Program-made: the position numbers and the translations under genes
Source of the DNA: Candidatus Latescibacterota bacterium
GTDB taxonomy: Bacteria; Latescibacterota; UBA2968
Assembly: GCA_965222605.1 (NCBI GenBank)
Contig: OZ244960.1
Span: 2,592,001-2,656,000 of the forward strand
Direction of reading: 5' to 3'
DNA: 64,000 bases
Shown here: positions 24,702 through 37,403 of the stretch, piece after piece
How the letters are laid out: every line of letters starts with the position of its first letter
Position numbering within the stretch: the stretch's first letter is position 1
The notes under the pieces: model-generated
The model's input: only the letters and a program-made list of their open reading frames with translations
Told to the model about the DNA's origin: nothing
The model's database searches: none

Positions 24702-25241
24702 ATGAACCTCATCACACAAAACCAACTCATTCCCCAGGCCATTGACATACGTCAAAACGGCGATGGCCTGCTCCTCTTCGCCGACGGTGAGGAACAGGCC
24801 ATAGATCGGGTGGTCCTTTGTTTTCCCTTTTCCACGCCCGACCAATGGATCAGTCTCCGCGACCGGGACGGAACCGAACTCGGCCTCTTGCCCACACTCG
24901 ACGGATTGAATGCACAAGCGCGGAAACTCATTGAAACGCACCTCAAAGGCCGCTACGACATCCCCAAAATCCAAACCATCCTCAACATCGAAAGCAGCAA
25001 AGAAGGCGGCACAGTCTGGGACATCGACACCGACGCGGGGCCCATGAGCTTCACAATCCGCGGCGACCAGAACCTCAACGCATTTCCCGAAATCGTATTC
25101 ACCGATGCCATAACGCGCAAACGCTACAAAATTTCCGACTACACCAAACTCGACCGCGCCAGCCAAAAAATCGCCCGTGCCTACCTGCCCATGGGCTCTC
25201 GTCACTACTCTGGGCGCCGCGGCGGCAGAAGCAGGAGGTAA
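24702..25241 (+). CDS. DUF1854-like protein
   Basis: CFPFSTPDQWISLRDRDGTELG, WDIDTDAG; starts 1 nt after the ABC gene stop. Confidence 0.75.
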   Translation: MNLITQNQLIPQAIDIRQNGDGLLLFADGEEQAIDRVVLCFPFSTPDQWISLRDRDGTELGLLPTLDGLNAQARKLIETHLKGRYDIPKIQTILNIESSKEGGTVWDIDTDAGPMSFTIRGDQNLNAFPEIVFTDAITRKRYKISDYTKLDRASQKIARAYLPMGSRHYSGRRGGRSRR

Positions 25242-25249
25242 AACAAAAA

Positions 25250-25356
25250 GGCCGACCACATGTGGTCGGCCCTACAACAACGGGCGGGCACGGGGACCCG
25301 CCCCTACAACACCCTGCCGCGATGACGAGTACGGGCGAGGCATGCCTCGCCCCTAC
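25250..25356. repeat. REP cluster (variant palindrome, family C, D half, family A)
   Basis: GGCCGACCACATGTGGTCGGCCCTAC; C at 25282-25307; A at 25333-25356. Confidence 0.85.
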
Positions 25357-25358
25357 AC

Positions 25359-25433
25359 CCTTCACACCCTTCACCCTTCACCCTTCACCCTTCACCCTTC
25401 ACCCTTCACCCTTCACCCTTCACCCCTTCACCC
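25359..25433. repeat. Heptamer tandem repeat (CCTTCAC)n
   Basis: About 10 units with two indels, overlapping the pafA 3' end. Confidence 0.92.
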
Positions 25434-26880
25434 GCCTCAAGCCCATCATCTTCGACGCGATCTCGACCTCCTCGGCAAACGCCTTCACCTCATCGTCGTA
25501 CGTATCAAACGGCTCGCGGAAACTCAAATGGAATTCATTTTCCAAATACACCGAATCCCAATCCACAATATACCGCACCCGATTTTTCGACAACGTCTTC
25601 ACCATCGCCGCACGCGCCTTTGCCCGCGTATCAGCCGGAGGCGTCGTACAAGCCTGTTCAACGCGCTCATCCGTCAGCACCCGCTGCATCTTACCCTGCT
25701 GCACCAGATCAAAATACAACCCGCGATTGGGATCAATATTGTGATACTCCAGATCCAAACTCTGCAACCACGGATCGTTCCAACTCAAATTTTCCGACTC
25801 GCGAAACGCATCCAACAACCACTTCTTCGCCACCCAGTCCACACGATCTGTCAACTGCATCGGATCGGACTCCAGATCATCCAGCGTGCGCTCCCACTCA
25901 TCCAGCACCCAATCCGACTCCTCATCCAGACCTCTCAAGTGGCGTTGTGACAAATCCAAATAATTGCGCTGTACATCAATAGCCGAAATAGACCGCCCAT
26001 TCTGCCGATCCAGAATCCACTTATATGTTGGATCCCGCGAAATCTCCTTCAGTGCCCACACCGGATCACCCACCCCCATATCCTGAGGAAAAATTTTGCG
26101 CTCCAGAAGATTTAGCACCATCGCAGTCGTGCCAACCTTCAGAGCCGTCGCATACTCCGACATATTTGAATCGCCCACCAGAAGGTGCAAACGGCGGTAT
26201 TTGCTGTGATCTGCCAGCGGTTCATCTCGCGTATTGATAATCGCGCGAGAAAACTGGATCCACTGATAAATCTCTGTCACAATATGATCGGCACGCTGAG
26301 AAATCTGGAAAGAGACAGAATCCTCTGGATCAGCGGCATCTCGCACATTTTGCCCATAATAATAAAAACTGTCGTCATAACTGCCCACGCGACCTGCACC
26401 GCAAAAAATCTGGCGCGTCACCAAAAACGGCAACAGCGCGGGAATGACAACAGTTGAAAACGGCACATTGCGCCTGACCAGATAATTTTCATGACAGCCA
26501 AACGTCGCACCCGTATAATGATCGATATTATTCTTTAAAAACGACGCTTCTTTCGCCAACCCCAGCGCGTGCAATGCCCGGTGCAAAATGAGATCGCCAG
26601 CCCGATCAAACGCCACAATATCCCACAACCCCATACACTCCGGCGTGGCGTATTCCAGATGCCCCATATCGATATAAACCCGCCCCGCATTAAACAAAAA
26701 ACCCCCATTGCCCGGGGGTTCATCCCGTCCGCGATAGTGAATATCCACAATCCCCATTCGGTCAACGTGAAAAATGTGATCCTTCACCTTCACCGAAATC
26801 GTATCGGGACTCACAAAACCCTCGTGCTCGGGAGCCAAACACCCATATTCGGTTTCTATGCCAAAAATGCGATCTCTCAT
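25420..26880 (-). CDS. pafA: Pup/UBact-protein ligase
   Basis: RIFGIETEYG, NAGRVYIDMGHLEYATPEC, GCHENY, INTRDEPLAD..YRRLHLLVGDSN; last gene of the operon. Confidence 0.9.
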   Translation of the reverse strand: MRDRIFGIETEYGCLAPEHEGFVSPDTISVKVKDHIFHVDRMGIVDIHYRGRDEPPGNGGFLFNAGRVYIDMGHLEYATPECMGLWDIVAFDRAGDLILHRALHALGLAKEASFLKNNIDHYTGATFGCHENYLVRRNVPFSTVVIPALLPFLVTRQIFCGAGRVGSYDDSFYYYGQNVRDAADPEDSVSFQISQRADHIVTEIYQWIQFSRAIINTRDEPLADHSKYRRLHLLVGDSNMSEYATALKVGTTAMVLNLLERKIFPQDMGVGDPVWALKEISRDPTYKWILDRQNGRSISAIDVQRNYLDLSQRHLRGLDEESDWVLDEWERTLDDLESDPMQLTDRVDWVAKKWLLDAFRESENLSWNDPWLQSLDLEYHNIDPNRGLYFDLVQQGKMQRVLTDERVEQACTTPPADTRAKARAAMVKTLSKNRVRYIVDWDSVYLENEFHLSFREPFDTYDDEVKAFAEEVEIASKMMGLRRVKG

Positions 26881-26918
26881 GTGAGCCTCTCACTGACAGG
26901 GCGAGGCATGCCTCGCCC

Positions 26919-27710
26919 CTACAATATAAACTGTGCCAAAGCGGGCGAAATCTCTTCTGTATCGACATTGCGATATTTGTTTTTTCCCAACTGCGACCGC
27001 CCGAGCACCACCGCCTCCACCTCTAAATTTTCCAGCTCCGTACTAAGCACATCAGCCACATCGACTACCCCCGCCATCTGCTCGAGCTCTTCAGCATCGG
27101 TGGGCACCTCATCCATCTTCCCAACCCATCGTCCCATTGCCCAGGCGCGCAGCGCAGCACCCGCGGCATCCGACAAAGACAACGCGCCCGTATCCAAATC
27201 CGACAACTCGCGCCCCATCATCACATCCGCCTCCACAACGCCGCCCACAACAGCCCATCCCTCGTGACGGTGAAACGCGCCATCGTAATCCACAGAATAA
27301 AAAATCTGCGCCCCCTCCTGCCCGTCCAGCTCAGCGAGAAGCACCCGCGCCAAAAACGGAGAATGCACCACATCGTCAAACCCCGCCTTTATCGCAGGAC
27401 CGAGACCAAAATACACAATTTGACGCAGCGTCACATCGTCCTCTGAATAATTAAACCCAATCGAATGCGCCATATCAATCGCAGCCTGCCTGAGCCTCTC
27501 GATATCCGTGGAATGCCCAATAGCCGCAAGCCCAATGCGATTGTACACCTCAAACAATTTCTGCTGACTCTGCGACAGCGTCAGCAACAAAACACCGCTA
27601 TCGTATCCCACACCCACAACCGGACTACCCGCCCGAATTTGATCTTCAATATAATCGCGCCGATTCGCAACCGCCTCTGCCCAGCGATACGGCTCATCTG
27701 ACAACATCAT
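26919..27710 (-). CDS. prcA: 20S proteasome alpha subunit
   Basis: EPYRWAEAVANRRDYIEDQI, KLFEVYNRIGLAAIG; follows prcB. Confidence 0.88.
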   Translation of the reverse strand: MMLSDEPYRWAEAVANRRDYIEDQIRAGSPVVGVGYDSGVLLLTLSQSQQKLFEVYNRIGLAAIGHSTDIERLRQAAIDMAHSIGFNYSEDDVTLRQIVYFGLGPAIKAGFDDVVHSPFLARVLLAELDGQEGAQIFYSVDYDGAFHRHEGWAVVGGVVEADVMMGRELSDLDTGALSLSDAAGAALRAWAMGRWVGKMDEVPTDAEELEQMAGVVDVADVLSTELENLEVEAVVLGRSQLGKNKYRNVDTEEISPALAQFIL

Positions 27711-28510
27711 GCGCGTCCCGCCTCCTCCCCATCCACATATTGAACATAAAGCCGCCGCAACGCCTCGGTCTCAATCTCTTCCAGACCCGACGCCGTAATC
27801 GTCTTCACCGACGGAAAAATATCAGCCGAACGCTCGTATCGCCCCGTAGCCGAATCGTATTCCGACGCCGTATCCAAAAGCTGAAGCGCGTGCCCGATTG
27901 CCGTATCGCGGTCCATATCGACAAAACGCCGACCGCTCCAGCGATTCAAATAATACATCGCCCCGCGAATCGCCGGCGACCCCGACCCCGTCGTCGTAAA
28001 ATCGGCACTTTCAAACTGCGCCCCCAACGCATCGTAAAAATAAATTTTGCCCCGCGCATCCACCAGATCATACGTCGCAAAAATTGGAATCACAGCACCA
28101 ATACCCTGCATCGCCAGCGGCAAATTATCCTTAATCAACAGCGACAACCGGCGCAACTTCGCCTGCAAACTCATCTCCTGAAGCAAACGGCGGCGATAAT
28201 ACTGAAACGCATGCTCCAAAATGCGCGCGATCTCAAACGCAATAGCTGGCGAACCCGAAATCGCCATCACCGAATACGCATCCAGATCAACCACCTTATC
28301 CGCGCGGTCATAAAGCACCATATTGCCCGCTGTAGCGCGGCGATCACCTGCAACGAGCACCCCATCGGCATATTGAAATGCCAGAATCGTCGTCGCATCC
28401 GTCGGCTCAAAAGGCAAATCGCGCCCGGACTGTACATCGCCCAAATTCTCACCCGGAAACCGGTAGCCCGTTTGCCGCAGCAAATCGACAAAATCCCCAC
28501 CCGATTGCAT
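27707..28510 (-). CDS. prcB: 20S proteasome beta subunit (with propeptide)
   Basis: TTILAFQYADGVLVAGDRRATAGN, DKV, TGSGS Ntn-hydrolase motifs. Confidence 0.93.
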   Translation of the reverse strand: MQSGGDFVDLLRQTGYRFPGENLGDVQSGRDLPFEPTDATTILAFQYADGVLVAGDRRATAGNMVLYDRADKVVDLDAYSVMAISGSPAIAFEIARILEHAFQYYRRRLLQEMSLQAKLRRLSLLIKDNLPLAMQGIGAVIPIFATYDLVDARGKIYFYDALGAQFESADFTTTGSGSPAIRGAMYYLNRWSGRRFVDMDRDTAIGHALQLLDTASEYDSATGRYERSADIFPSVKTITASGLEEIETEALRRLYVQYVDGEEAGRA

Positions 28511-28513
28511 AAT

Positions 28514-28705
28514 CTACTCGCCTGTACGCTGGCGATAACGCCGCGCCTGGTTGGGATCAACGCGCCGCATGCGCCGCATCAAATCGCGCGTATCTGGCCG
28601 CTCCACCTTCGGGCGTGCGGGACCACCATCGCCATCATCGCCCGGACCAGGTCCTCCCGGATCGACCGGCTTCGTCCGTCGCTCAAACTGCAAGACCTTA
28701 TCCAT
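28514..28705 (-). CDS. ubact: Prokaryotic ubiquitin-like protein UBact
   Basis: 63 aa, Gly/Pro-rich; ends LMRRMRRVDPNQARRYRQRTGE (R[ST]G[EQ] signature); lies between dop and prcB; RBS AAGGAGG. Confidence 0.92.
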   Translation of the reverse strand: MDKVLQFERRTKPVDPGGPGPGDDGDGGPARPKVERPDTRDLMRRMRRVDPNQARRYRQRTGE

Positions 28706-28740
28706 CTACGGCCTCCTTAATAAAAAAATGACCCACCTGC

Positions 28741-28886
28741 GGGCGAGGCATGCCTCGCCCCTACAAACCACAATATCTGCGGGCGGGCACGGGGACCCGC
28801 CCCTACAAACCACAATATCATCGTAGGGGACGGTCCCTGTGCCGTCCCGGATGTCCACCTGCGGGCGAGGCATGCCTCGCCCCTAC
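28741..28886. repeat. BIME-like REP cluster (A, C, B reverse, A) with repeated linkers
   Basis: Linker AAACCACAATATC occurs twice; CCACCTGC precedes both A copies. Confidence 0.88.
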
Positions 28887-30412
28887 GGATCTACCTTCTC
28901 CAACGCCTCTAAAAAACCCTCCAACGTCTCCGCACTATCCAACACCTCATTATAACGCTCTACCCGCCCCGCATCCACCAATAATTTCATATCCACCGCA
29001 TGCTGGCGGCCATTGCGCTTAAACACTATGCGATCCCAATTAATCGACGACACATAATCGCCAAACTTCTCCAAACTGCGCCCTCGAAAATACGCCCGCG
29101 TACCCGAAGGCGGTTCCGACATCGCCGCGGCCACCTCATCATCGCCCACCAGACGCACCATCTGCCCCTGCGACTCCAGCAAATAATACAACCCCTCATC
29201 CCGATTCACATTGCTATATTCCAGATCCTGACTCTGCATCCAGAACAAATCATCGGGATTATCCCACGCCAGATTCTCCGCCTCGCAAAAACTATCGATC
29301 AGCCACTTCTTCGTCACCCAATCGCACACACCCACCAGATCCATCGGATCGCGACTCAATTTCCCCAGCACATCGTCCCACGCCGACAACACCCAATCCG
29401 TCTCTCGATCGCGCCCGGCAAACTCGCGCCGCGCCAACGCCAAAAACGCATCCTGAATTTCAACCGCGGGAACGAGGCGACTGCCCGGACCCTCGACCTC
29501 CACCAACCACGCATGCGACTGATCTCGAGCGATATTCTTCATCGCCGCAATCGGATCCTTCAACCGATAATCGGGCAAACAATCCGCCTCAATCAAATCG
29601 ATCACCAGCGCCGTTGTCCCCACCTTAAGCGCCGTCATATACTCCGACATATTGGCATCGCCCACAATGACATGCAACCGGCGATAACGCGCTGCATCTG
29701 CGTGGGGTTCATCGCGCGTATTCACAACGGGACGCTTGTGCATCGTATCCACACTCGCGATCACCTCAAAAAACTCCGCGCGCTGCGACAACTGATAAAT
29801 CGGCGCCCGATCCTCCCGCTCAACACCCACCTTGCCAGCCCCGCAAAAAATCTGCCGCGTGGGAAAAAACTGCAACAACCCCTTCAATATACGCTCGAAA
29901 GGCACCGAACGATCCATCAAATAATTCTCGTGGCACCCATAGCTATGCCCTTCAAAATCCGTATTATTCTTATACATCCGCACAGCACCCTGATCCAGTA
30001 TCTCCGTCCGCCGCTGCGCGCAAATATCGACAATGCGCTCCCCCGCCTTATCCTGTGCCACAAGCTCGAACAAACTCACGCACTCACCCGTCGAATACTC
30101 CGGATGCGTATGATCGTTATAAAACCGGGAACCATTGTAAATAATCAAATCGCTCTTCAATTCCACAAACGGAATCTTGCGCTTGCGATCCTGTTGCAAA
30201 TGCACCTTTTCATCGGCATCATTCAACAGATTTTTAACTTCAAACCCCCGGTCATCCCGACGGGGGTTTTCCAATCGATAATCCCACAACGGAACAAACT
30301 TGCCCTGCTGATAGCAGCGGATCAACTGCATCGACTCTTCCACCACATCGACCCTATCCACCCCGTCGATCGTGATCCCATATTCCGTTTCCAGCCCAAA
30401 CAAACGCGTCAT
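28883..30412 (-). CDS. dop: Depupylase/deamidase Dop
   Basis: RLFGLETEYG, NGSRFYNDHTHPEYST, YKNNTD..GHSYGCHENY, TRDEPHAD. Confidence 0.9.
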   Translation of the reverse strand: MTRLFGLETEYGITIDGVDRVDVVEESMQLIRCYQQGKFVPLWDYRLENPRRDDRGFEVKNLLNDADEKVHLQQDRKRKIPFVELKSDLIIYNGSRFYNDHTHPEYSTGECVSLFELVAQDKAGERIVDICAQRRTEILDQGAVRMYKNNTDFEGHSYGCHENYLMDRSVPFERILKGLLQFFPTRQIFCGAGKVGVEREDRAPIYQLSQRAEFFEVIASVDTMHKRPVVNTRDEPHADAARYRRLHVIVGDANMSEYMTALKVGTTALVIDLIEADCLPDYRLKDPIAAMKNIARDQSHAWLVEVEGPGSRLVPAVEIQDAFLALARREFAGRDRETDWVLSAWDDVLGKLSRDPMDLVGVCDWVTKKWLIDSFCEAENLAWDNPDDLFWMQSQDLEYSNVNRDEGLYYLLESQGQMVRLVGDDEVAAAMSEPPSGTRAYFRGRSLEKFGDYVSSINWDRIVFKRNGRQHAVDMKLLVDAGRVERYNEVLDSAETLEGFLEALEKVDP

Positions 30413-32115
30413 ATCACACCATGCCCGGAGGTGCGGCGCTCTCGCCTGGGGCGAATCGGTGCTGCGCGCACCACATTTTCCGGATCGTAATCCAGCAACT
30501 TCAACCAATCCTCTGTATTATCCGTCGGCGGGAAAATCTCATTCTCGCTATACTCCATCTCAATCGCCGCGAGCATATCGTCAAAACCGATCCCCTCTAC
30601 CGAACCCGAAGCAATACACCGCTTAATCGCAATCTCCTTCGCGCGCTGCACAATAGACTCGAGAATTGCCCCACTGCACAAATCCCCGCGGCTCAGCACT
30701 TCCTTGCGACCGCTTCTAAGCATCACCTCTAAAAACCGCGTATCATCGCGCCTGACATATATCTCCGCAATCGTACGCGCCACCAGATCGTCAACCGCTG
30801 CCCGCACATTGCCATCCTGTGCATTTAACTCACCCTCTGCCACCGGCAAATCAGCCGTCAAATAAATACCCAAAATCTCGCGCGCCGCATCTTCGTCTGG
30901 CCGGATCACCTTAATTTTGCGATCAATACGCCCCGGCCGCAAAATCGCCGGATCGATCAAATCGGGACGATTGGACGTCAAAATAATCACCACATCATGC
31001 AAAGACTCGATCCCATCCATCTCGGCACAAAACATCGGCACAACCGTATTTGAAATATTGTGCGACCGAGTCGCCCGCCGCGTACCCAAAACCGACTCTG
31101 CCTCATCGATAAACACCACCGGCAAAAACCCCTCGCGCCGCTTCTCGCGCGCCTGAGAGAAAATCTCGCGCACCTTGCGCTCGGACTCCCCCAACCACAT
31201 ATTCAAAATCTCAGGCCCCTTAATATGCATAAAACACGCCTTGAGATTCAGTCCGTCTTCCTGCACCTGCTTCTCCAGATTGTACGCCGTCGCCTTCCCA
31301 ATCAAAGTCTTGCCACATCCCGGCGGGCCGTATAACAAAAACCCCTTGGGCGTACTGTAATGAAAACGCTTAAACAACTCCGGATGCAACACCGGCATCT
31401 CAATCGTATCTTTGATCGCCTGAATCGCCTTTTTTTGCCCACCGATTTTTTCCCACGGCAAATCGGGAACTTCCTCCAGATAAAAATCCTTAACTTCGGA
31501 ATGCGGCATCTTTTCCAGCGCCACGCGAAAAAGGGGATCAATACGCACCTCCTCGCCCGCCTTCAAAGACTCGCGCACCAGATCTGCCCCACGCAGGAGA
31601 ACATGCGTCTGCGAACCGTGTTCTTGCCCCACCTGCAAACGCCCATCGTCCAGCACATCGACAATTTTGCCCACCGTACCCGACGGAGACTCGCCCATAT
31701 CGCCCACCACGGCAAATGCCTCATTGACCAGCACCCGCGTCCCCACCTTCAAACGGCGTTCATCCAACCGCGCATCCACATTCGCATAATACTCCGACCC
31801 ACCCACCGTAATATACGCCACGCCATTTTCCGGCGGCGCCAACAACGTCCCCACCCGATTGGCCGGTGCAGTCACCTTCTCCAGCGTCCCTTCCAACTCC
31901 ACAATCGTGCGCCTCGCCTCCTCAAACGTAATCTCATCTTCCTGAAGCTGCCGGCGCAACTGGAATAAAAGGGGCCGCCGTCGATCTGTCTCATCCATCG
32001 TCATCAAAATCTGATCGATAATCGACAGCGACTGAAACGTATGCTGCATATCCACATAGTCCTGAAGAAAATCTTCAGGTGACTTTCTCTGACGATCAGA
32101 ATCGCTGGTATTGAT
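30409..32115 (-). CDS. arc: Proteasome-associated AAA ATPase ARC/Mpa
   Basis: N-terminal coiled coil + OB-like region; GPPGCGKT, IKGPEILN, FIDEAE, SNRPDLIDPAILRPGRID; start either ATC 32115 (best RBS) or ATG 32049. Confidence 0.92.
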   Translation of the reverse strand: MNTSDSDRQRKSPEDFLQDYVDMQHTFQSLSIIDQILMTMDETDRRRPLLFQLRRQLQEDEITFEEARRTIVELEGTLEKVTAPANRVGTLLAPPENGVAYITVGGSEYYANVDARLDERRLKVGTRVLVNEAFAVVGDMGESPSGTVGKIVDVLDDGRLQVGQEHGSQTHVLLRGADLVRESLKAGEEVRIDPLFRVALEKMPHSEVKDFYLEEVPDLPWEKIGGQKKAIQAIKDTIEMPVLHPELFKRFHYSTPKGFLLYGPPGCGKTLIGKATAYNLEKQVQEDGLNLKACFMHIKGPEILNMWLGESERKVREIFSQAREKRREGFLPVVFIDEAESVLGTRRATRSHNISNTVVPMFCAEMDGIESLHDVVIILTSNRPDLIDPAILRPGRIDRKIKVIRPDEDAAREILGIYLTADLPVAEGELNAQDGNVRAAVDDLVARTIAEIYVRRDDTRFLEVMLRSGRKEVLSRGDLCSGAILESIVQRAKEIAIKRCIASGSVEGIGFDDMLAAIEMEYSENEIFPPTDNTEDWLKLLDYDPENVVRAAPIRPRRERRTSGHGVI

Positions 32116-32145
32116 GGCTGACCCCCTCTCGGATGAAGCATAAAA

Positions 32146-32177
32146 GCAACCACAGATGAACACAGATGAACACGGAT
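32146..32177 (-). repeat. 10-mer tandem element (TTCATCTGTG)n-GTTGC, family E
   Basis: Copies at 32146, 33193, 35054, 47861, 55175 and 60970. Confidence 0.85.
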
Positions 32178-32202
32178 AAAAGGCAAAAAGCGTCTTCTGT
32201 CA

Positions 32203-32231
32203 AGAATACCATATCTCAAAACCCGTGTCAA
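32203..32231 (-). promoter_or_regulatory. Sigma70 promoter of the proteasome operon
   Basis: TTGACA-17-TATTCT with extended -10 TG. Confidence 0.7.
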
Positions 32232-32240
32232 GCCGTGAAC

Positions 32241-33176
32241 TCACTCCTTTTCGAGCTTTTCCAGCTTGCGTTCCATATCAATTTTAATCTCAGCGACAAT
32301 ATTGGCAATCGGGTCCTTCTTCCCCGCCTTAATAACCACAGGCTTATTGATATCAAAATGCACCTTGTGATATAACACCAACCCGCGCGTCGCATCGATT
32401 ACCCACGAACCCCCGCCTGTACCCTTCCCGTTATAATACAGAGAAACCACACTCACCTCGATCCACCCCGCGTACTCCACCTCACTATCCTCATCGATAG
32501 ACACCTCCACGCGCCCCTTCTCATTCTTGATATTCTTCACCTCGTAAGTACTCTTAATTTTAATCTGCGAATCGCGCCCCAGCATATCCATACTCGCAAA
32601 CGGACGCCAAAAATCGCGCTCGCCCGTCCAGGTATCGCCCTTATTAACCGGCTCATCCGGCAAAACGGGCGCAAACGCCGGCATCGCCCCCTGGAACATA
32701 TCCGTAACCAAATCCTGCCGATCCACGCGAAACGCTGCAAATTCAGGCTCAAACTTCTGCACCATGCCCTCGGGCGTCACCTGCCAGGTAAAAGCCCTAT
32801 CATTAAACATATCAAACGTAAACGGAAACTGCTCATACGTCTGCTTCTCGCCCAAAAAAATCGCTGCACTCGCACCCTTTTTAATCTCAGCGCGAACACT
32901 CATCACCCCCTCGGGTATTGTCTTCCCCCGCAACGCCTGCGGCACAACCACCTCTTCATGGCTGCGCCACTCATTATCTATGGTCACGCGAATATGCCCG
33001 CTCTGCATCACAATCTGCTCGCCCTGATTGCTATAATACTCCACCCGAAACTTATGCTTATATTGCGCCTTGCGCCCCTCTGGGAACTTCAGTTCCAACG
33101 CTATAGGCTGTGCCCAACAGTCGGTGACAGCACTGACGAGCACCCCGAAAATAATCGTTAATTTTAATATATGCAT
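32241..33176 (-). CDS. Hypothetical secreted beta-rich protein
   Basis: Signal peptide (MHILKLTIIFGVLVSAVTDCWA); LPDEPVNKGDTW; RBS GGAGG. Confidence 0.75.
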   Translation of the reverse strand: MHILKLTIIFGVLVSAVTDCWAQPIALELKFPEGRKAQYKHKFRVEYYSNQGEQIVMQSGHIRVTIDNEWRSHEEVVVPQALRGKTIPEGVMSVRAEIKKGASAAIFLGEKQTYEQFPFTFDMFNDRAFTWQVTPEGMVQKFEPEFAAFRVDRQDLVTDMFQGAMPAFAPVLPDEPVNKGDTWTGERDFWRPFASMDMLGRDSQIKIKSTYEVKNIKNEKGRVEVSIDEDSEVEYAGWIEVSVVSLYYNGKGTGGGSWVIDATRGLVLYHKVHFDINKPVVIKAGKKDPIANIVAEIKIDMERKLEKLEKE

Positions 33177-33230: not shown

Positions 33231-33737
33231 CTAATCTATTTCGATTCTTTTAATCACTTCTCGACACAAATCGGCTGATATCCAGATAGCATCATGGGCG
33301 ATGATGATCTCTATCAAGGTATTGACTTCAGCAAGGGAAATCAAATTTTCGCGGTAAGCCTGAACAATTATACCCAATGTCCCTTTGACCCTCAACCCGA
33401 GTTTTTTGGCCTCTTCTCTCGCCTTTAGGTCATCAAGTAGTACCAAGCTATCTGCTTCTTGTGTACTGAGATAAATGGCTTCTTTTTCTCCCGCATCCAA
33501 AGCCAGTGAAACTATCTCTAATGGTAAATCAGCTACATCCTCAACGATGAGTTGCTTTTGACGTATTGCTATTTCGGCCATCCTCGCATCAATGTGACCT
33601 TGTTTTCCCCCCGTGATAACAACCTCTCGATGAACCTCTGCGGAGATACTTACTTGCCCAAATAGTCGAAAAAGGATATCCAAAGTACCTATTTTACCCA
33701 GTGCCATCAGAGGACCAGAATTACAAAAGACCTTCAC
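33231..33737 (-). CDS. DUF3368 PIN-like nucleic-acid-binding protein (TA toxin-like)
   Basis: NSGPLMAL, LDAGEKEAI, LLDDLKAR, GTLGII. Confidence 0.85.
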   Translation of the reverse strand: MKVFCNSGPLMALGKIGTLDILFRLFGQVSISAEVHREVVITGGKQGHIDARMAEIAIRQKQLIVEDVADLPLEIVSLALDAGEKEAIYLSTQEADSLVLLDDLKAREEAKKLGLRVKGTLGIIVQAYRENLISLAEVNTLIEIIIAHDAIWISADLCREVIKRIEID

Positions 33738-33997
33738 ACCAGTTCTTCCTGGACCTGGGTTTTACTCCAACGAGGTTGGATTCCAACGATCCGAGCCTGA
33801 TGTACCATTTCCTGCTCTGTTAGATCGGCGAGTTCTGCTGCTCTGCCAATTGATACAAGCCCGCGCTGGTAGAGCAACAGGGCTTCCTGAATTTTGACCT
33901 GAGACAACCCGAGCAACAGAAGCTCTCCCAACCGGTCTTTATAGGCTTCCAACTCCGCCATTTTTTGATCGGGAATTTCGACTGTTGTTTTTGCCAT
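33734..33997 (-). CDS. UPF0175 family antitoxin-like protein
   Basis: LYQRGLVSIGRAAELA; overlaps the DUF3368 start. Confidence 0.8.
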   Translation of the reverse strand: MAKTTVEIPDQKMAELEAYKDRLGELLLLGLSQVKIQEALLLYQRGLVSIGRAAELADLTEQEMVHQARIVGIQPRWSKTQVQEELV

Positions 33998-34019
33998 CCG
34001 TAAGATCCTTATTCTCAAT

Positions 34020-35221: not shown

Positions 35222-35275
35222 GGGACGGCACGGGGACCGTCTCAACAACGGGACGGCACGGGGACCGTCCCCTAC
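35222..35275. repeat. Tandem REP family B copies
   Basis: 35222-35241 and 35250-35275; another copy at 35091-35116. Confidence 0.85.
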
Positions 35276-37320
35276 TTCAACAGCAGCATCTTCTGGATCG
35301 CGGTATTTGAACCCGCTTTGATCTCGGCGATATAAACGCCACTACCAACGCTGCGGCCCAGATAATCCTTAGCATCCCACTGGACACTATAACGACCTGC
35401 TGTATAATGCCGGCTCACGAGTTGACGAATCTCCTGCCCAATCGCATCGTAAATCACGATAGACACATCTGTCTCAGCAGGCAAATCATAGGAAATCGTC
35501 GTTCTCGGGTTAAACGGATTGGGATAAACCGTCGAAGCAAATTCTGTGGGCAGAATGAAACGCGCGCCCAACAGCACCTCAATCGGATTCGAACGATTAA
35601 TCGTCCCATCCAGATCAATTTGCTCGAGCAGGTAATAAACCTTCCCAACAGCGGGAAGGCTCGTATCCTCAAACATATAATCCATCAACTGATCGGTCGT
35701 ACCGGCACCGGCTATGAGCGCGCTGACCACCTCGTAGGTCTCACCATCCGTGCTGCGAAGCACGCGGAAACCCGCATTATTGGTCTGCGAAGCCGTCGCC
35801 CAATTCAGCACCACGCGGTCTTCAATCACCGATCCGACAAAAGACGACAACTCAATCGGCACCTGCTCGTCAAACTGAACAGTTGTCTCAACAGAAGCCA
35901 TGCCATCACTCGCCGTCACCGTGACAACAGCGGAACCCAGACCAGTCGCAGTCAAAACATAAACTTCAAGCATATTCATGTCCGGGTGACCATCGATCAT
36001 AGCCGCGCCTTCTACAGTATGCGAAAAGGTAATTTTAGAACCCTCGGCAAAGCCCAGAGCGGTAATCTTAACCGTCGCTTCACCACCGCGCGGAATCGTC
36101 GCAATAGTCGCAGACACCTCCAGCCGCGGACCGAAATTATACATCACCGGTGCTGGAATCATCAGCATCGTCGTCTCGCCAGACGCGAGAAGCCCTGTAA
36201 ACGACTCAACACCAACCGTAAACGGCACAGCCTCAGCACCTGTCATCAGCTTCACCGTGCCCAAAAAACCACCATTGGACAGCATCACCGCTTGTTCAGA
36301 ACCAACATCGACCATATTACCGGAAATACCCAGCAGAGTTATACCCTCAGCAGGTGCAAAACCCGTGATCATCGCCGCAGAAGCCGGATCAATCGTAAAT
36401 GAGATACTCGCACCGCCGATACCACCATCTATATCACCTGCAAACACCTCAATGGCAATCTCTTCATTGGCACCGGCACTGGCCGCGAGCATACCATCAT
36501 CCATCATATTCATCATGTCCATGCCGACAACGGCATCCAGCGCGGGAAGCCTCACCTCGACAAACTCAATCGTAATCGGATCGGTTGTGGTCATACCATC
36601 ACTCGCCGTCACGATCGCCTTTGCCGGGCCACTTGCCGTCAACGTCAGCGTGGCGCCATCCATCATGGACATAACATGCTCAATCATTTCGCCCTGCACG
36701 TCAAAGGTAATCGTCGCATCGGCGGCAAAATTCACAGCCGTAATCGTTGCCTTCCCGGTGCTACCCGCTGGCACAGAAACCACAGTCGCATCTGCTTCCA
36801 GCCTGGGAATGGCATTAAAAGACAAGGGTGCCATCATCGCCGTGGTAATATCATCAGTGTTAGTAGGATCGGCACCACTGGCCAGGCTCTTAATACTGAC
36901 GCCAACTGTAAATTCAGTACTTGCCATCACACCTTCTACGGGCGTCAGCGTAACAGTCGTGAAATAGTCGTTGGTCAAAGAAGCACCAGGTGGAACACCA
37001 CCAATAGTAGCAACATTTGCTGTTGTACCCAGAACAAAAAGTCCCGCAGCAGAAGTCGCACTTTTGACCGTCAGCTTATCCGTATCAAAAGTTATCTCAC
37101 CACCGACAATGGGACCTGCCAACCCACTGATAAATATTTCAACGACAACATCGGTACCCGCAACAGCAGTACCCGATGTATGGCCATCATTCATTTTATT
37201 GTCACTGGCATCAATGTCAACTGACAAAACAGCATTTGCATTGGGACCAGCAGAAGCTTGACCCACAAACGCCAGAAATGCAAGGGCAGTAAAAAATAAC
37301 AATCCTCTTTTCAAAAACAT
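35272..37320 (-). CDS. Secreted acidic protein with two cohesin-like/Ig-like domains and FlgD-Ig/T9SS-like C-terminus
   Basis: Signal peptide; VPIELSSF...WATASQTNNAGF; YPNPFNPRTTISYDLP...WDAKD...SGVY...KMLLLK. Confidence 0.85.
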   Translation of the reverse strand: MFLKRGLLFFTALAFLAFVGQASAGPNANAVLSVDIDASDNKMNDGHTSGTAVAGTDVVVEIFISGLAGPIVGGEITFDTDKLTVKSATSAAGLFVLGTTANVATIGGVPPGASLTNDYFTTVTLTPVEGVMASTEFTVGVSIKSLASGADPTNTDDITTAMMAPLSFNAIPRLEADATVVSVPAGSTGKATITAVNFAADATITFDVQGEMIEHVMSMMDGATLTLTASGPAKAIVTASDGMTTTDPITIEFVEVRLPALDAVVGMDMMNMMDDGMLAASAGANEEIAIEVFAGDIDGGIGGASISFTIDPASAAMITGFAPAEGITLLGISGNMVDVGSEQAVMLSNGGFLGTVKLMTGAEAVPFTVGVESFTGLLASGETTMLMIPAPVMYNFGPRLEVSATIATIPRGGEATVKITALGFAEGSKITFSHTVEGAAMIDGHPDMNMLEVYVLTATGLGSAVVTVTASDGMASVETTVQFDEQVPIELSSFVGSVIEDRVVLNWATASQTNNAGFRVLRSTDGETYEVVSALIAGAGTTDQLMDYMFEDTSLPAVGKVYYLLEQIDLDGTINRSNPIEVLLGARFILPTEFASTVYPNPFNPRTTISYDLPAETDVSIVIYDAIGQEIRQLVSRHYTAGRYSVQWDAKDYLGRSVGSGVYIAEIKAGSNTAIQKMLLLK

Positions 37321-37403
37321 TTGCAAGACTCCTTCGCTGAAAACTACTCCTTGTAAGTTCTGAGGGAAAAATTAGGGGCGAGGCATGCCTCGCCCCTACC
37401 GAA

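Follow-up and report, generated by a model that had tools for sequence, protein, structure and literature searches.

The UBact-proteasome locus and its gene families

We analysed a 64,000-nt window of a Candidatus Latescibacterota genome (assembly GCA_965222605.1, contig OZ244960.1, positions 2,592,001 to 2,656,000), in which a group of minus-strand genes encodes a small protein modifier, UBact, together with a proteasome. All coordinates below are positions within this window. Six co-oriented open reading frames (ORFs) in the order arc/mpa-dop-ubact-prcB-prcA-pafA occupy 25420-32163 when the longest ORFs are taken, and hidden Markov models (HMMs) of Pfam and NCBIfam matched all six. As shown in Table 1, the gene content and shared orientation given in a preliminary description of this DNA were recovered, and each ORF matched the family expected for it. 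An HMM search covering UBact, Pup, PafA/Dop and PrcA/PrcB identified the small ORF as UBact and the Pup alternative failed. Both UBact models scored above their cut-offs, Pfam Pup gave no match to the 63-residue protein even at E<=10, and the tail of the protein reads RTGE, not GG[EQ]. The earlier view that the locus is of the UBact type rather than the Pup type was thus borne out. The host had been described as Gram-negative in type, and this is fair, since the genome encodes BamA (513.8 bits against a cut-off of 297) and is thus diderm-type. These results indicate that we are very probably dealing with a UBact-proteasome system of the standard kind, which in Gram-negative bacteria is the counterpart of the Pup-proteasome system of actinobacteria. 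Such loci were reportedly described from Gram-negative phyla in 2017 by Lehmann, Udasin, Livneh and Ciechanover (BBRC 483:946-950, as cited in PMC12751074). The locus is a typical member of this known system. As a locus it adds little, since such operons are already catalogued, have curated HMMs, are routinely annotated and are named in public records of the phylum.

Table 1. Features of the UBact-proteasome locus and of its spacers and flanks.
Feature	Positions	Strand	Basis or description
arc/mpa, proteasomal AAA+ unfoldase	30409..32115 from probable ATC start (568 aa); longest ORF 30409-32163 from GTG (584 aa)	-	Pfam AAA, Prot_ATP_ID_OB_N, Prot_ATP_ID_OB_C; TIGR03689 471.8 bits
dop, predicted de-conjugase (deamidase/depupylase homologue)	28883..30412 from ATG (509 aa); longest ORF 28883-30508	-	Pup_ligase 506 bits; TIGR03688 446.4 bits
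ubact, modifier (63 aa)	28514..28705	-	NF033388 78.7 bits (cut-off 35); PF20513 68.4 bits (cut-off 27.8)
prcB, proteasome beta subunit	27707..28510	-	TIGR03690 171.7 bits
prcA, proteasome alpha subunit	26919..27710	-	TIGR03691 77.7 bits; PF00227 29.9 bits
pafA-like, predicted ligase (486 aa)	25420..26880	-	Pfam Pup_ligase 487 bits; PafA model TIGR03686 379.4 bits, Dop model 372.8 bits
Promoter-like site, TTGACA-17 nt-TATTCT with upstream TG (extended -10)	32203..32231	-	Pattern match; candidate
dop-ubact spacer	28706..28882	-	Two copies of palindrome GGGCGAGGCATGCCTCGCCC, two further GC hairpins, terminator-like hairpin with T-run (28747-28732), AAGGAGG before ubact ATG
REP-like palindrome directly after prcA stop	26899..26918		Sequence; TAG in GTAG head
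Heptamer tandem repeat (GTGAAGG)n on coding strand, about 9 copies	25365..25434		Begins at pafA stop codon and forms the final codons of pafA
Two REP-like GTAG-headed hairpins downstream of pafA	25281..25356		Sequence
Terminator-like hairpin, 11 pairs (7 GC), then TTTGTTTT	25248..25273	-	Probable transcription-unit end

The genes had also been described as partly overlapping. This was found for two of the five junctions, since arc/dop and prcB/prcA overlap by 4 nt each, but the other three have gaps of 3 nt (ubact-prcB), 177 nt (dop-ubact) and 38 nt (prcA-pafA).

The UBact tag

UBact is encoded between dop and prcB. It is a basic protein, with 16 K/R against 11 D/E as counted from the sequence, and its C-terminus is RQRTGE. 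The last four residues fit the UBact C-terminal motif R-[TS]-G-[EQ]. A search with the tag gave 216 homologues at E<=0.001. Among the 120 homologues listed, the last residue was E in 92, Q in 27 and another residue in 1, and the tails were RQRTGE in 91, RQRTGQ in 27 and RQRSGE in 1. In the 92 loci that we compared, UBact ended in E in 89 and in Q in 3 (L003, L027 and L065). The Gln-ending proteins make up about a fifth of the homologues listed (27/120; for example P0076, P0082, P0089, P0099, P0112 and P0120), and this division mirrors the PupQ/PupE split of actinobacteria.

According to two reports, Pup that ends in Gln needs deamidation by Dop before ligation, Glu-ending Pup does not, and Dop also removes the Pup tag from conjugates (PMC8223512, PMC7947786). 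By analogy, the natural reading is that Glu-ending UBact would be ready for ligation and that Dop would be left mainly as a de-conjugase. The occurrence of both E and Q as last residue among UBact homologues strengthens this reading somewhat.

Conservation of the locus among relatives

The spread of the locus was examined by tblastn with the six window proteins as queries. All six genes were found in 73 loci. The rest were either short or truncated at the end of a contig, or had a UBact gene standing alone (L008 and L031). The order arc-dop-ubact-prcB-prcA-pafA was kept in 71 of the 73 six-gene loci; the other two, L030 and L057, each had one out-of-order coordinate. The median gap over the 73 loci was 6 nt for ubact-prcB and -4 nt for prcB-prcA. 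Tight coupling was confined to ubact-prcB-prcA, and the lengths of the arc-dop, dop-ubact and prcA-pafA spacers lay between about 0 and more than 1000 nt. Related genomes from the same genus, family and order all encode UBact (41/41). Because UBact occurs in every one of these relatives and the gene order is kept in nearly all six-gene loci, the locus is not a chance finding.

Beyond these relatives, a scan of the genome collection gave at least 510 stretches that encode a relative. Among the matches listed, the closest public records were from Candidatus Latescibacterota, followed by Poribacteria and some metagenome-assembled genomes labelled Gemmatimonadota. Public records name homologues 'ubiquitin-like protein UBact [Candidatus Latescibacteria bacterium]'.

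Within the 6.34-Mb single-contig genome, ubact is a single-copy gene. A search of this genome for proteasome-family (PF00227) genes found just prcA and prcB of the locus and no gene of the HslV type. Among the genes that flank the locus there was no pafBC, bpa or cpa-type partner. In some relatives a second, lone UBact gene lies away from any proteasome gene (L031, 4792-5025; L008, 1492-1665), and the one in L031 is flanked by two response-regulator genes on one side and by a gene of the sigma-70 family on the other.

The Dop and PafA-like paralogues

The genome has only two Pup_ligase genes, each of which encodes the catalytic Asp and the GhExE strand. The upstream paralogue shows the features of Dop. 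It scored 446.4 bits with the Dop model and 343.4 bits with the PafA model, and it matched Acidothermus Dop (4b0r) at 386 bits over residues 1-472, with the Dop loop and the DHTHPEY motif included. The Dop motif DH[TA]HPE[YF] was present in 82 of 84 loci.

The downstream paralogue, here called PafA-like, aligned end to end with Corynebacterium glutamicum PafA. It has no Dop loop and carries just a 7-residue insert at the loop site; the absence of a loop of about 40 residues is what marks PafA according to PMC7947786. After the catalytic Asp it reads DMGHLEY, and DMGH[LIV]E[YF] was found in 76/76 loci. When compared with the residues conserved uniquely in PafA in Table 1 of Hecht et al. (PMC7947786), PafA-like has the PafA-type residues F54, G66, A72, H188, S200 and D439. 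The PafA residues S50, S51, S67, A74, W190, E191, G192, S194, S195, A196 and R199 of the same table are not found in it. Its own alpha-loop region was invariant in all 24 aligned rows.

A FastTree phylogeny of 119 rows was then considered, which comprised both window proteins, eight further ones from relatives, and 109 unnamed representatives of 50%-identity clusters. The representatives, 430-620 aa in length, were taken from the 150 hits listed, and sequences outside this range were left out. The tree was rooted at its midpoint and its rows were labelled by our own motif rule, under which 27 of the 119 matched no motif. The split between PafA and Dop was the deepest in the tree and had a support of 100 on both sides. 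The window PafA-like protein fell on the side that held all 21 rows with the PafA motif D-x-G-x-H, and the window Dop fell on the side that held all 37 D-H-x-H rows.

A model of the tag-ligase complex was built from PafA-like (24-row alignment) and UBact residues 28-63 (40 rows of the tag alignment). The model scored 0.84 and the best of three controls scored 0.01; of the solved complexes, 58 of 80 attained the mark used, as did 2 of 110 mismatched pairs. Contact agreement between runs was at least 76%, and the predicted local distance difference test value (pLDDT) of the partner was at least 68. In the model, UBact residues 49-63 contact PafA-like residues 11, 13 and 71-74, which comprise the nucleotide-binding strand and the catalytic Asp. 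The model thus places the C-terminal Glu of UBact at the predicted active site of PafA-like.

Proteasome core and ARC unfoldase

Alignment of residue 1 of the mature Rhodococcus beta subunit with residue 40 of PrcB gave a propeptide of 39 residues followed by Thr1 (T40), Asp17 (D56) and Lys33 (K72). The pattern TT[IV]...D...K was present in 88/88 loci. The most divergent of the six genes is prcA; its product scored above the cut-off of the Pfam Proteasome model (PF00227, 22.4 bits), and it matched the solved alpha subunits of Rhodococcus and Mycobacterium tuberculosis at 52 bits. ARC carries the Walker A sequence GPPGCGKT, the Walker B sequence FIDEAE, a W-L-G pore loop and two OB domains, and it matched the M. 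tuberculosis Mpa chain 5kwa_A at 348 bits over residues 100-565. The C-terminus of ARC (30409-30430) is SGHGVI, and an ending of [VI][VI] after a basic linker was found in 73 of 76 loci.

Evidence against a standard system, and alternative readings

Several observations weigh against the view that this is a standard UBact-proteasome system. All five enzymes scored under the equivalog cut-offs of NCBIfam, which are based on actinobacteria (ARC 471.8/504.75, Dop 446.4/492.3, PafA 379.4/551.3, PrcB 171.7/191.9 and PrcA 77.7/139.05 bits), so that they differ in this respect from the actinobacterial enzymes. PafA-like scored 304.5 bits against solved Dop and 251.6 bits against solved PafA. Of the nine residues in the alpha-loop that ligase activity requires according to Hecht et al. 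(PMC7947786), it has just two. The complex of PafA-like with UBact may have reached the mark partly through its likeness to the solved PafA-Pup structure 4BJR. ARC is without the Mpa-type GQYL tail, and Tyr at position -2 or -3 was found in 0/76 relatives; the C-terminal GQYL of Mpa is required for opening of the 20S gate, according to PMC8142254. Finally, a literature search, with most subscription journals outside its range, turned up no experimental paper on any UBact system, which agrees with the earlier remark that the system is barely characterised biochemically.

The scores of PafA-like raise the alternative in which 25420-26880, the downstream paralogue, encodes another Dop-like hydrolase or a mixed-activity enzyme, with ligation carried out by the upstream paralogue or elsewhere. 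In addition to the higher score against solved Dop, the two NCBIfam models are nearly equal on this protein (379.4 for PafA and 372.8 for Dop), Pro80 is Dop-type, and PMC7947786 lists W190, E191, G192, S194, S195, A196 and R199 as PafA alpha-loop residues, none of which is present. However, the protein has no Dop loop, carries six PafA-type residues and groups with PafA at the deepest split of the tree, which is fully supported. Moreover, the upstream paralogue carries the full Dop signature, and as the genome has just two Pup_ligase genes, any conjugation of the tag would require one of them to be the ligase. We therefore regard this alternative as quite improbable. The narrower candidate, that PafA-like is simply a second Dop, was rejected as the main reading because of the missing loop, the PafA-type residues and the position in the tree. 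We conclude from these sequence comparisons that the gene for PafA-like is an orthologue on the PafA side, diverged in its own way, and that its product is a predicted ligase.

The tail of ARC is relevant to a second alternative, in which UBact tagging mainly regulates proteins without degradation and the proteasome is largely independent of UBact. Some actinobacteria retain pupylation without a proteasome, which provides a precedent, and the absence of a GQYL/HbYX-type tail on ARC is consistent with it. On the other hand, ubact is translationally coupled to prcB-prcA, the gap being 3 nt in the window and 6 nt in the median of the 73 loci. Conservation of the ARC tail ([VI][VI] in 73/76 loci) also argues for a retained docking function. 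Regulation without degradation is therefore very unlikely in our view. ARC would dock, if at all, through a Val-Ile tail that lacks Tyr, in contrast to known proteasome activators, whose tails are of the GQYL or HbYX kind.

Probable start codons of arc and dop

The start of arc is probably a non-canonical codon. A Shine-Dalgarno sequence of the GGAGG(TGA) type at arc is followed, after 6-8 nt, by a conserved ATC, ATT or ATA codon (ATH; AUH in the mRNA) in 38 of 39 Latescibacterota-type loci. The codon in the window is ATC (32115-32113), and one of the 39 loci carries an ATG at the preceding codon. In 14 of the 39 loci the stretch from the nearest upstream stop to the ATH codon contains no in-frame ATG, GTG or TTG, and in several the stop itself falls between the Shine-Dalgarno sequence and this codon. 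The 13 codons between ATC and the next canonical starts (GTG37 and ATG39) vary as codons do, with summed entropies of 3.09, 1.47 and 14.03 at positions 1, 2 and 3. The 5' flank of the ATH codon has an entropy of about 25 at each codon position. In 17 other loci a GTG lies within the Shine-Dalgarno sequence, in frame and three codons upstream, and could be the start there.

Start codons of the AUC, AUU or AUA type are rare in bacteria; infC and pcnB of Escherichia coli use AUU. The pattern across loci suggests that arc probably starts at the conserved AUH codon, which in the window is the ATC at 32115 and not the GTG at 32163. If this is true, the AUH start would make ARC synthesis sensitive to the initiation factor IF3. 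For dop, the most likely start is the ATG at 30412, which overlaps the arc stop codon as ATGA and gives a protein that would begin with MTRLFGLETEYG; the TTG at 30508 is less likely.

Promoter, spacers and transcription units

The preliminary description placed the six genes behind their own sigma70 promoter. The pattern TTGACA-17-TATTCT is present upstream of arc, but promoter-like sites in the region were at chance level (7 found, 6.1 expected). In 17 of 39 loci, some of them distant and with a diverged spacer, arc is preceded by TTGACA...TGnTAnnCT. Because of this conservation, and despite the chance-level count, 32231-32203 is a reasonable promoter candidate.

The transcription pattern of the locus, which we infer from spacers and hairpins, is less clear-cut. 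A single operon behind one promoter is the weaker part of the earlier claim, since four REP-like hairpins and a terminator-like hairpin lie between the genes. It is possible, though somewhat short of probable, that the six genes are divided, as in mycobacteria, between two or three transcription units (arc-dop; ubact-prcB-prcA; pafA). In that case, the REP-like and T-run hairpins would act as partial terminators or RNA-stability elements that set different levels of tag, protease and enzymes. Consistent with several units, the 177-nt dop-ubact spacer holds four hairpins, of which the last is followed by TCATTTTTTT just before the Shine-Dalgarno sequence of ubact and was flagged as terminator-like. 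In addition, ubact has a strong AAGGAGG of its own, and over the 73 loci the arc-dop, dop-ubact and prcA-pafA spacers are variable in length, tight coupling being kept by ubact-prcB-prcA alone. However, neither the spacers of the window nor those of relatives gave a minus-strand promoter-like site, a weak negative because a strict, narrow pattern was applied to 73 dop-ubact spacers. The overlap of arc and dop by ATGA, the shared orientation of all six genes and the position of the one strong terminator-like site after pafA also speak for a single unit.

The REP-like element itself consists of a GTAG head and the palindrome GGGCGAGGCATGCCTCGCCC. It occurs in 20 exact copies in the genome, 11 of which lie within the window: at 25329-25356, 26899-26918, 28741-28760 and 28863-28882, and at seven more sites. 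The TAG stop codons of dop and prcA fall inside the head of this element. A search of Rfam over 24800-32600 gave no match at E<=0.1.

Predicted pathway and comparison with known systems

We infer each biochemical step of the system by analogy with Pup. PafA-like would use ATP to activate the side-chain carboxylate of the C-terminal Glu63 of UBact, and would then link the activated Glu63 to lysine side chains of target proteins. A deamidation step would be unneeded because the tag is made with Glu. The ARC hexamer would bind the tag, unfold the tagged protein and thread it into the 20S core of PrcA and PrcB, where Thr1 of PrcB would cleave the substrate once the 39-residue propeptide has been removed. 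Dop would hydrolyse the isopeptide bond and so recycle UBact.

The locus agrees with the UBact loci of Gram-negative phyla in its gene order, in a tag that matches the UBact HMMs and ends in R-T-G-E, and in its diderm host; no system-level difference from them was shown here. With the actinobacterial Pup system (mpa, dop, pup, prcB, prcA and pafA of M. tuberculosis) it shares the same six families, the order around the tag, the catalytic residues and the logic of a C-terminal Glu or Gln. The differences from the Pup system lie in other features. UBact is basic, has no detectable sequence match to Pup and ends in RTGE, whereas Pup ends in GG[EQ]. PafA-like has DMGH and a different alpha-loop region, invariant in 24/24 rows, in contrast to DVGSH in actinobacterial PafA. 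ARC ends in Val-Ile, unlike Mpa with its GQYL tail (PMC8142254). Furthermore, pafA adjoins prcA here, and the flanks are without pafBC.

Taken together, these differences raise the idea that the UBact branch is not a simple copy of Pup, and that its recognition interfaces were rewired together and its unfoldase is held back at translation. The idea is based on the basic and Pup-unlike tag, the invariant alpha-loop of the ligase's own kind, the Val-Ile tail of ARC, and the apparent start of arc, across this order, at a conserved AUC/AUU/AUA codon behind a strong Shine-Dalgarno sequence, and we give it about an even chance. The contrasts with the mycobacterial system that can be tested are the probable non-AUG start of arc, the Val-Ile tail of ARC, the lineage-specific ligase loop and the REP-like elements within the operon. 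These are modest, testable refinements and not a new kind of system. The value of the locus is that of a clean and complete candidate for a first biochemical reconstitution of a UBact system, with all catalytic motifs intact. Digestion of conjugates with trypsin should leave an informative Thr-Gly-Glu remnant on lysine, with a mass increase of +287.11 Da as calculated from the residue masses.

Neighbouring genes

Two further features were observed upstream of the locus. The ORF at 35272-37326 encodes a 684-aa protein in which a FlgD Ig-like domain occurs together with Por_Secre_tail, a sorting domain of type IX secretion, consistent with a diderm host of the FCB group. Nearer to the operon, at 33231-34018, a gene for a UPF0175 protein (94 aa) is followed by one for a DUF3368 protein (168 aa), and this two-gene arrangement presumably resembles a toxin-antitoxin pair.

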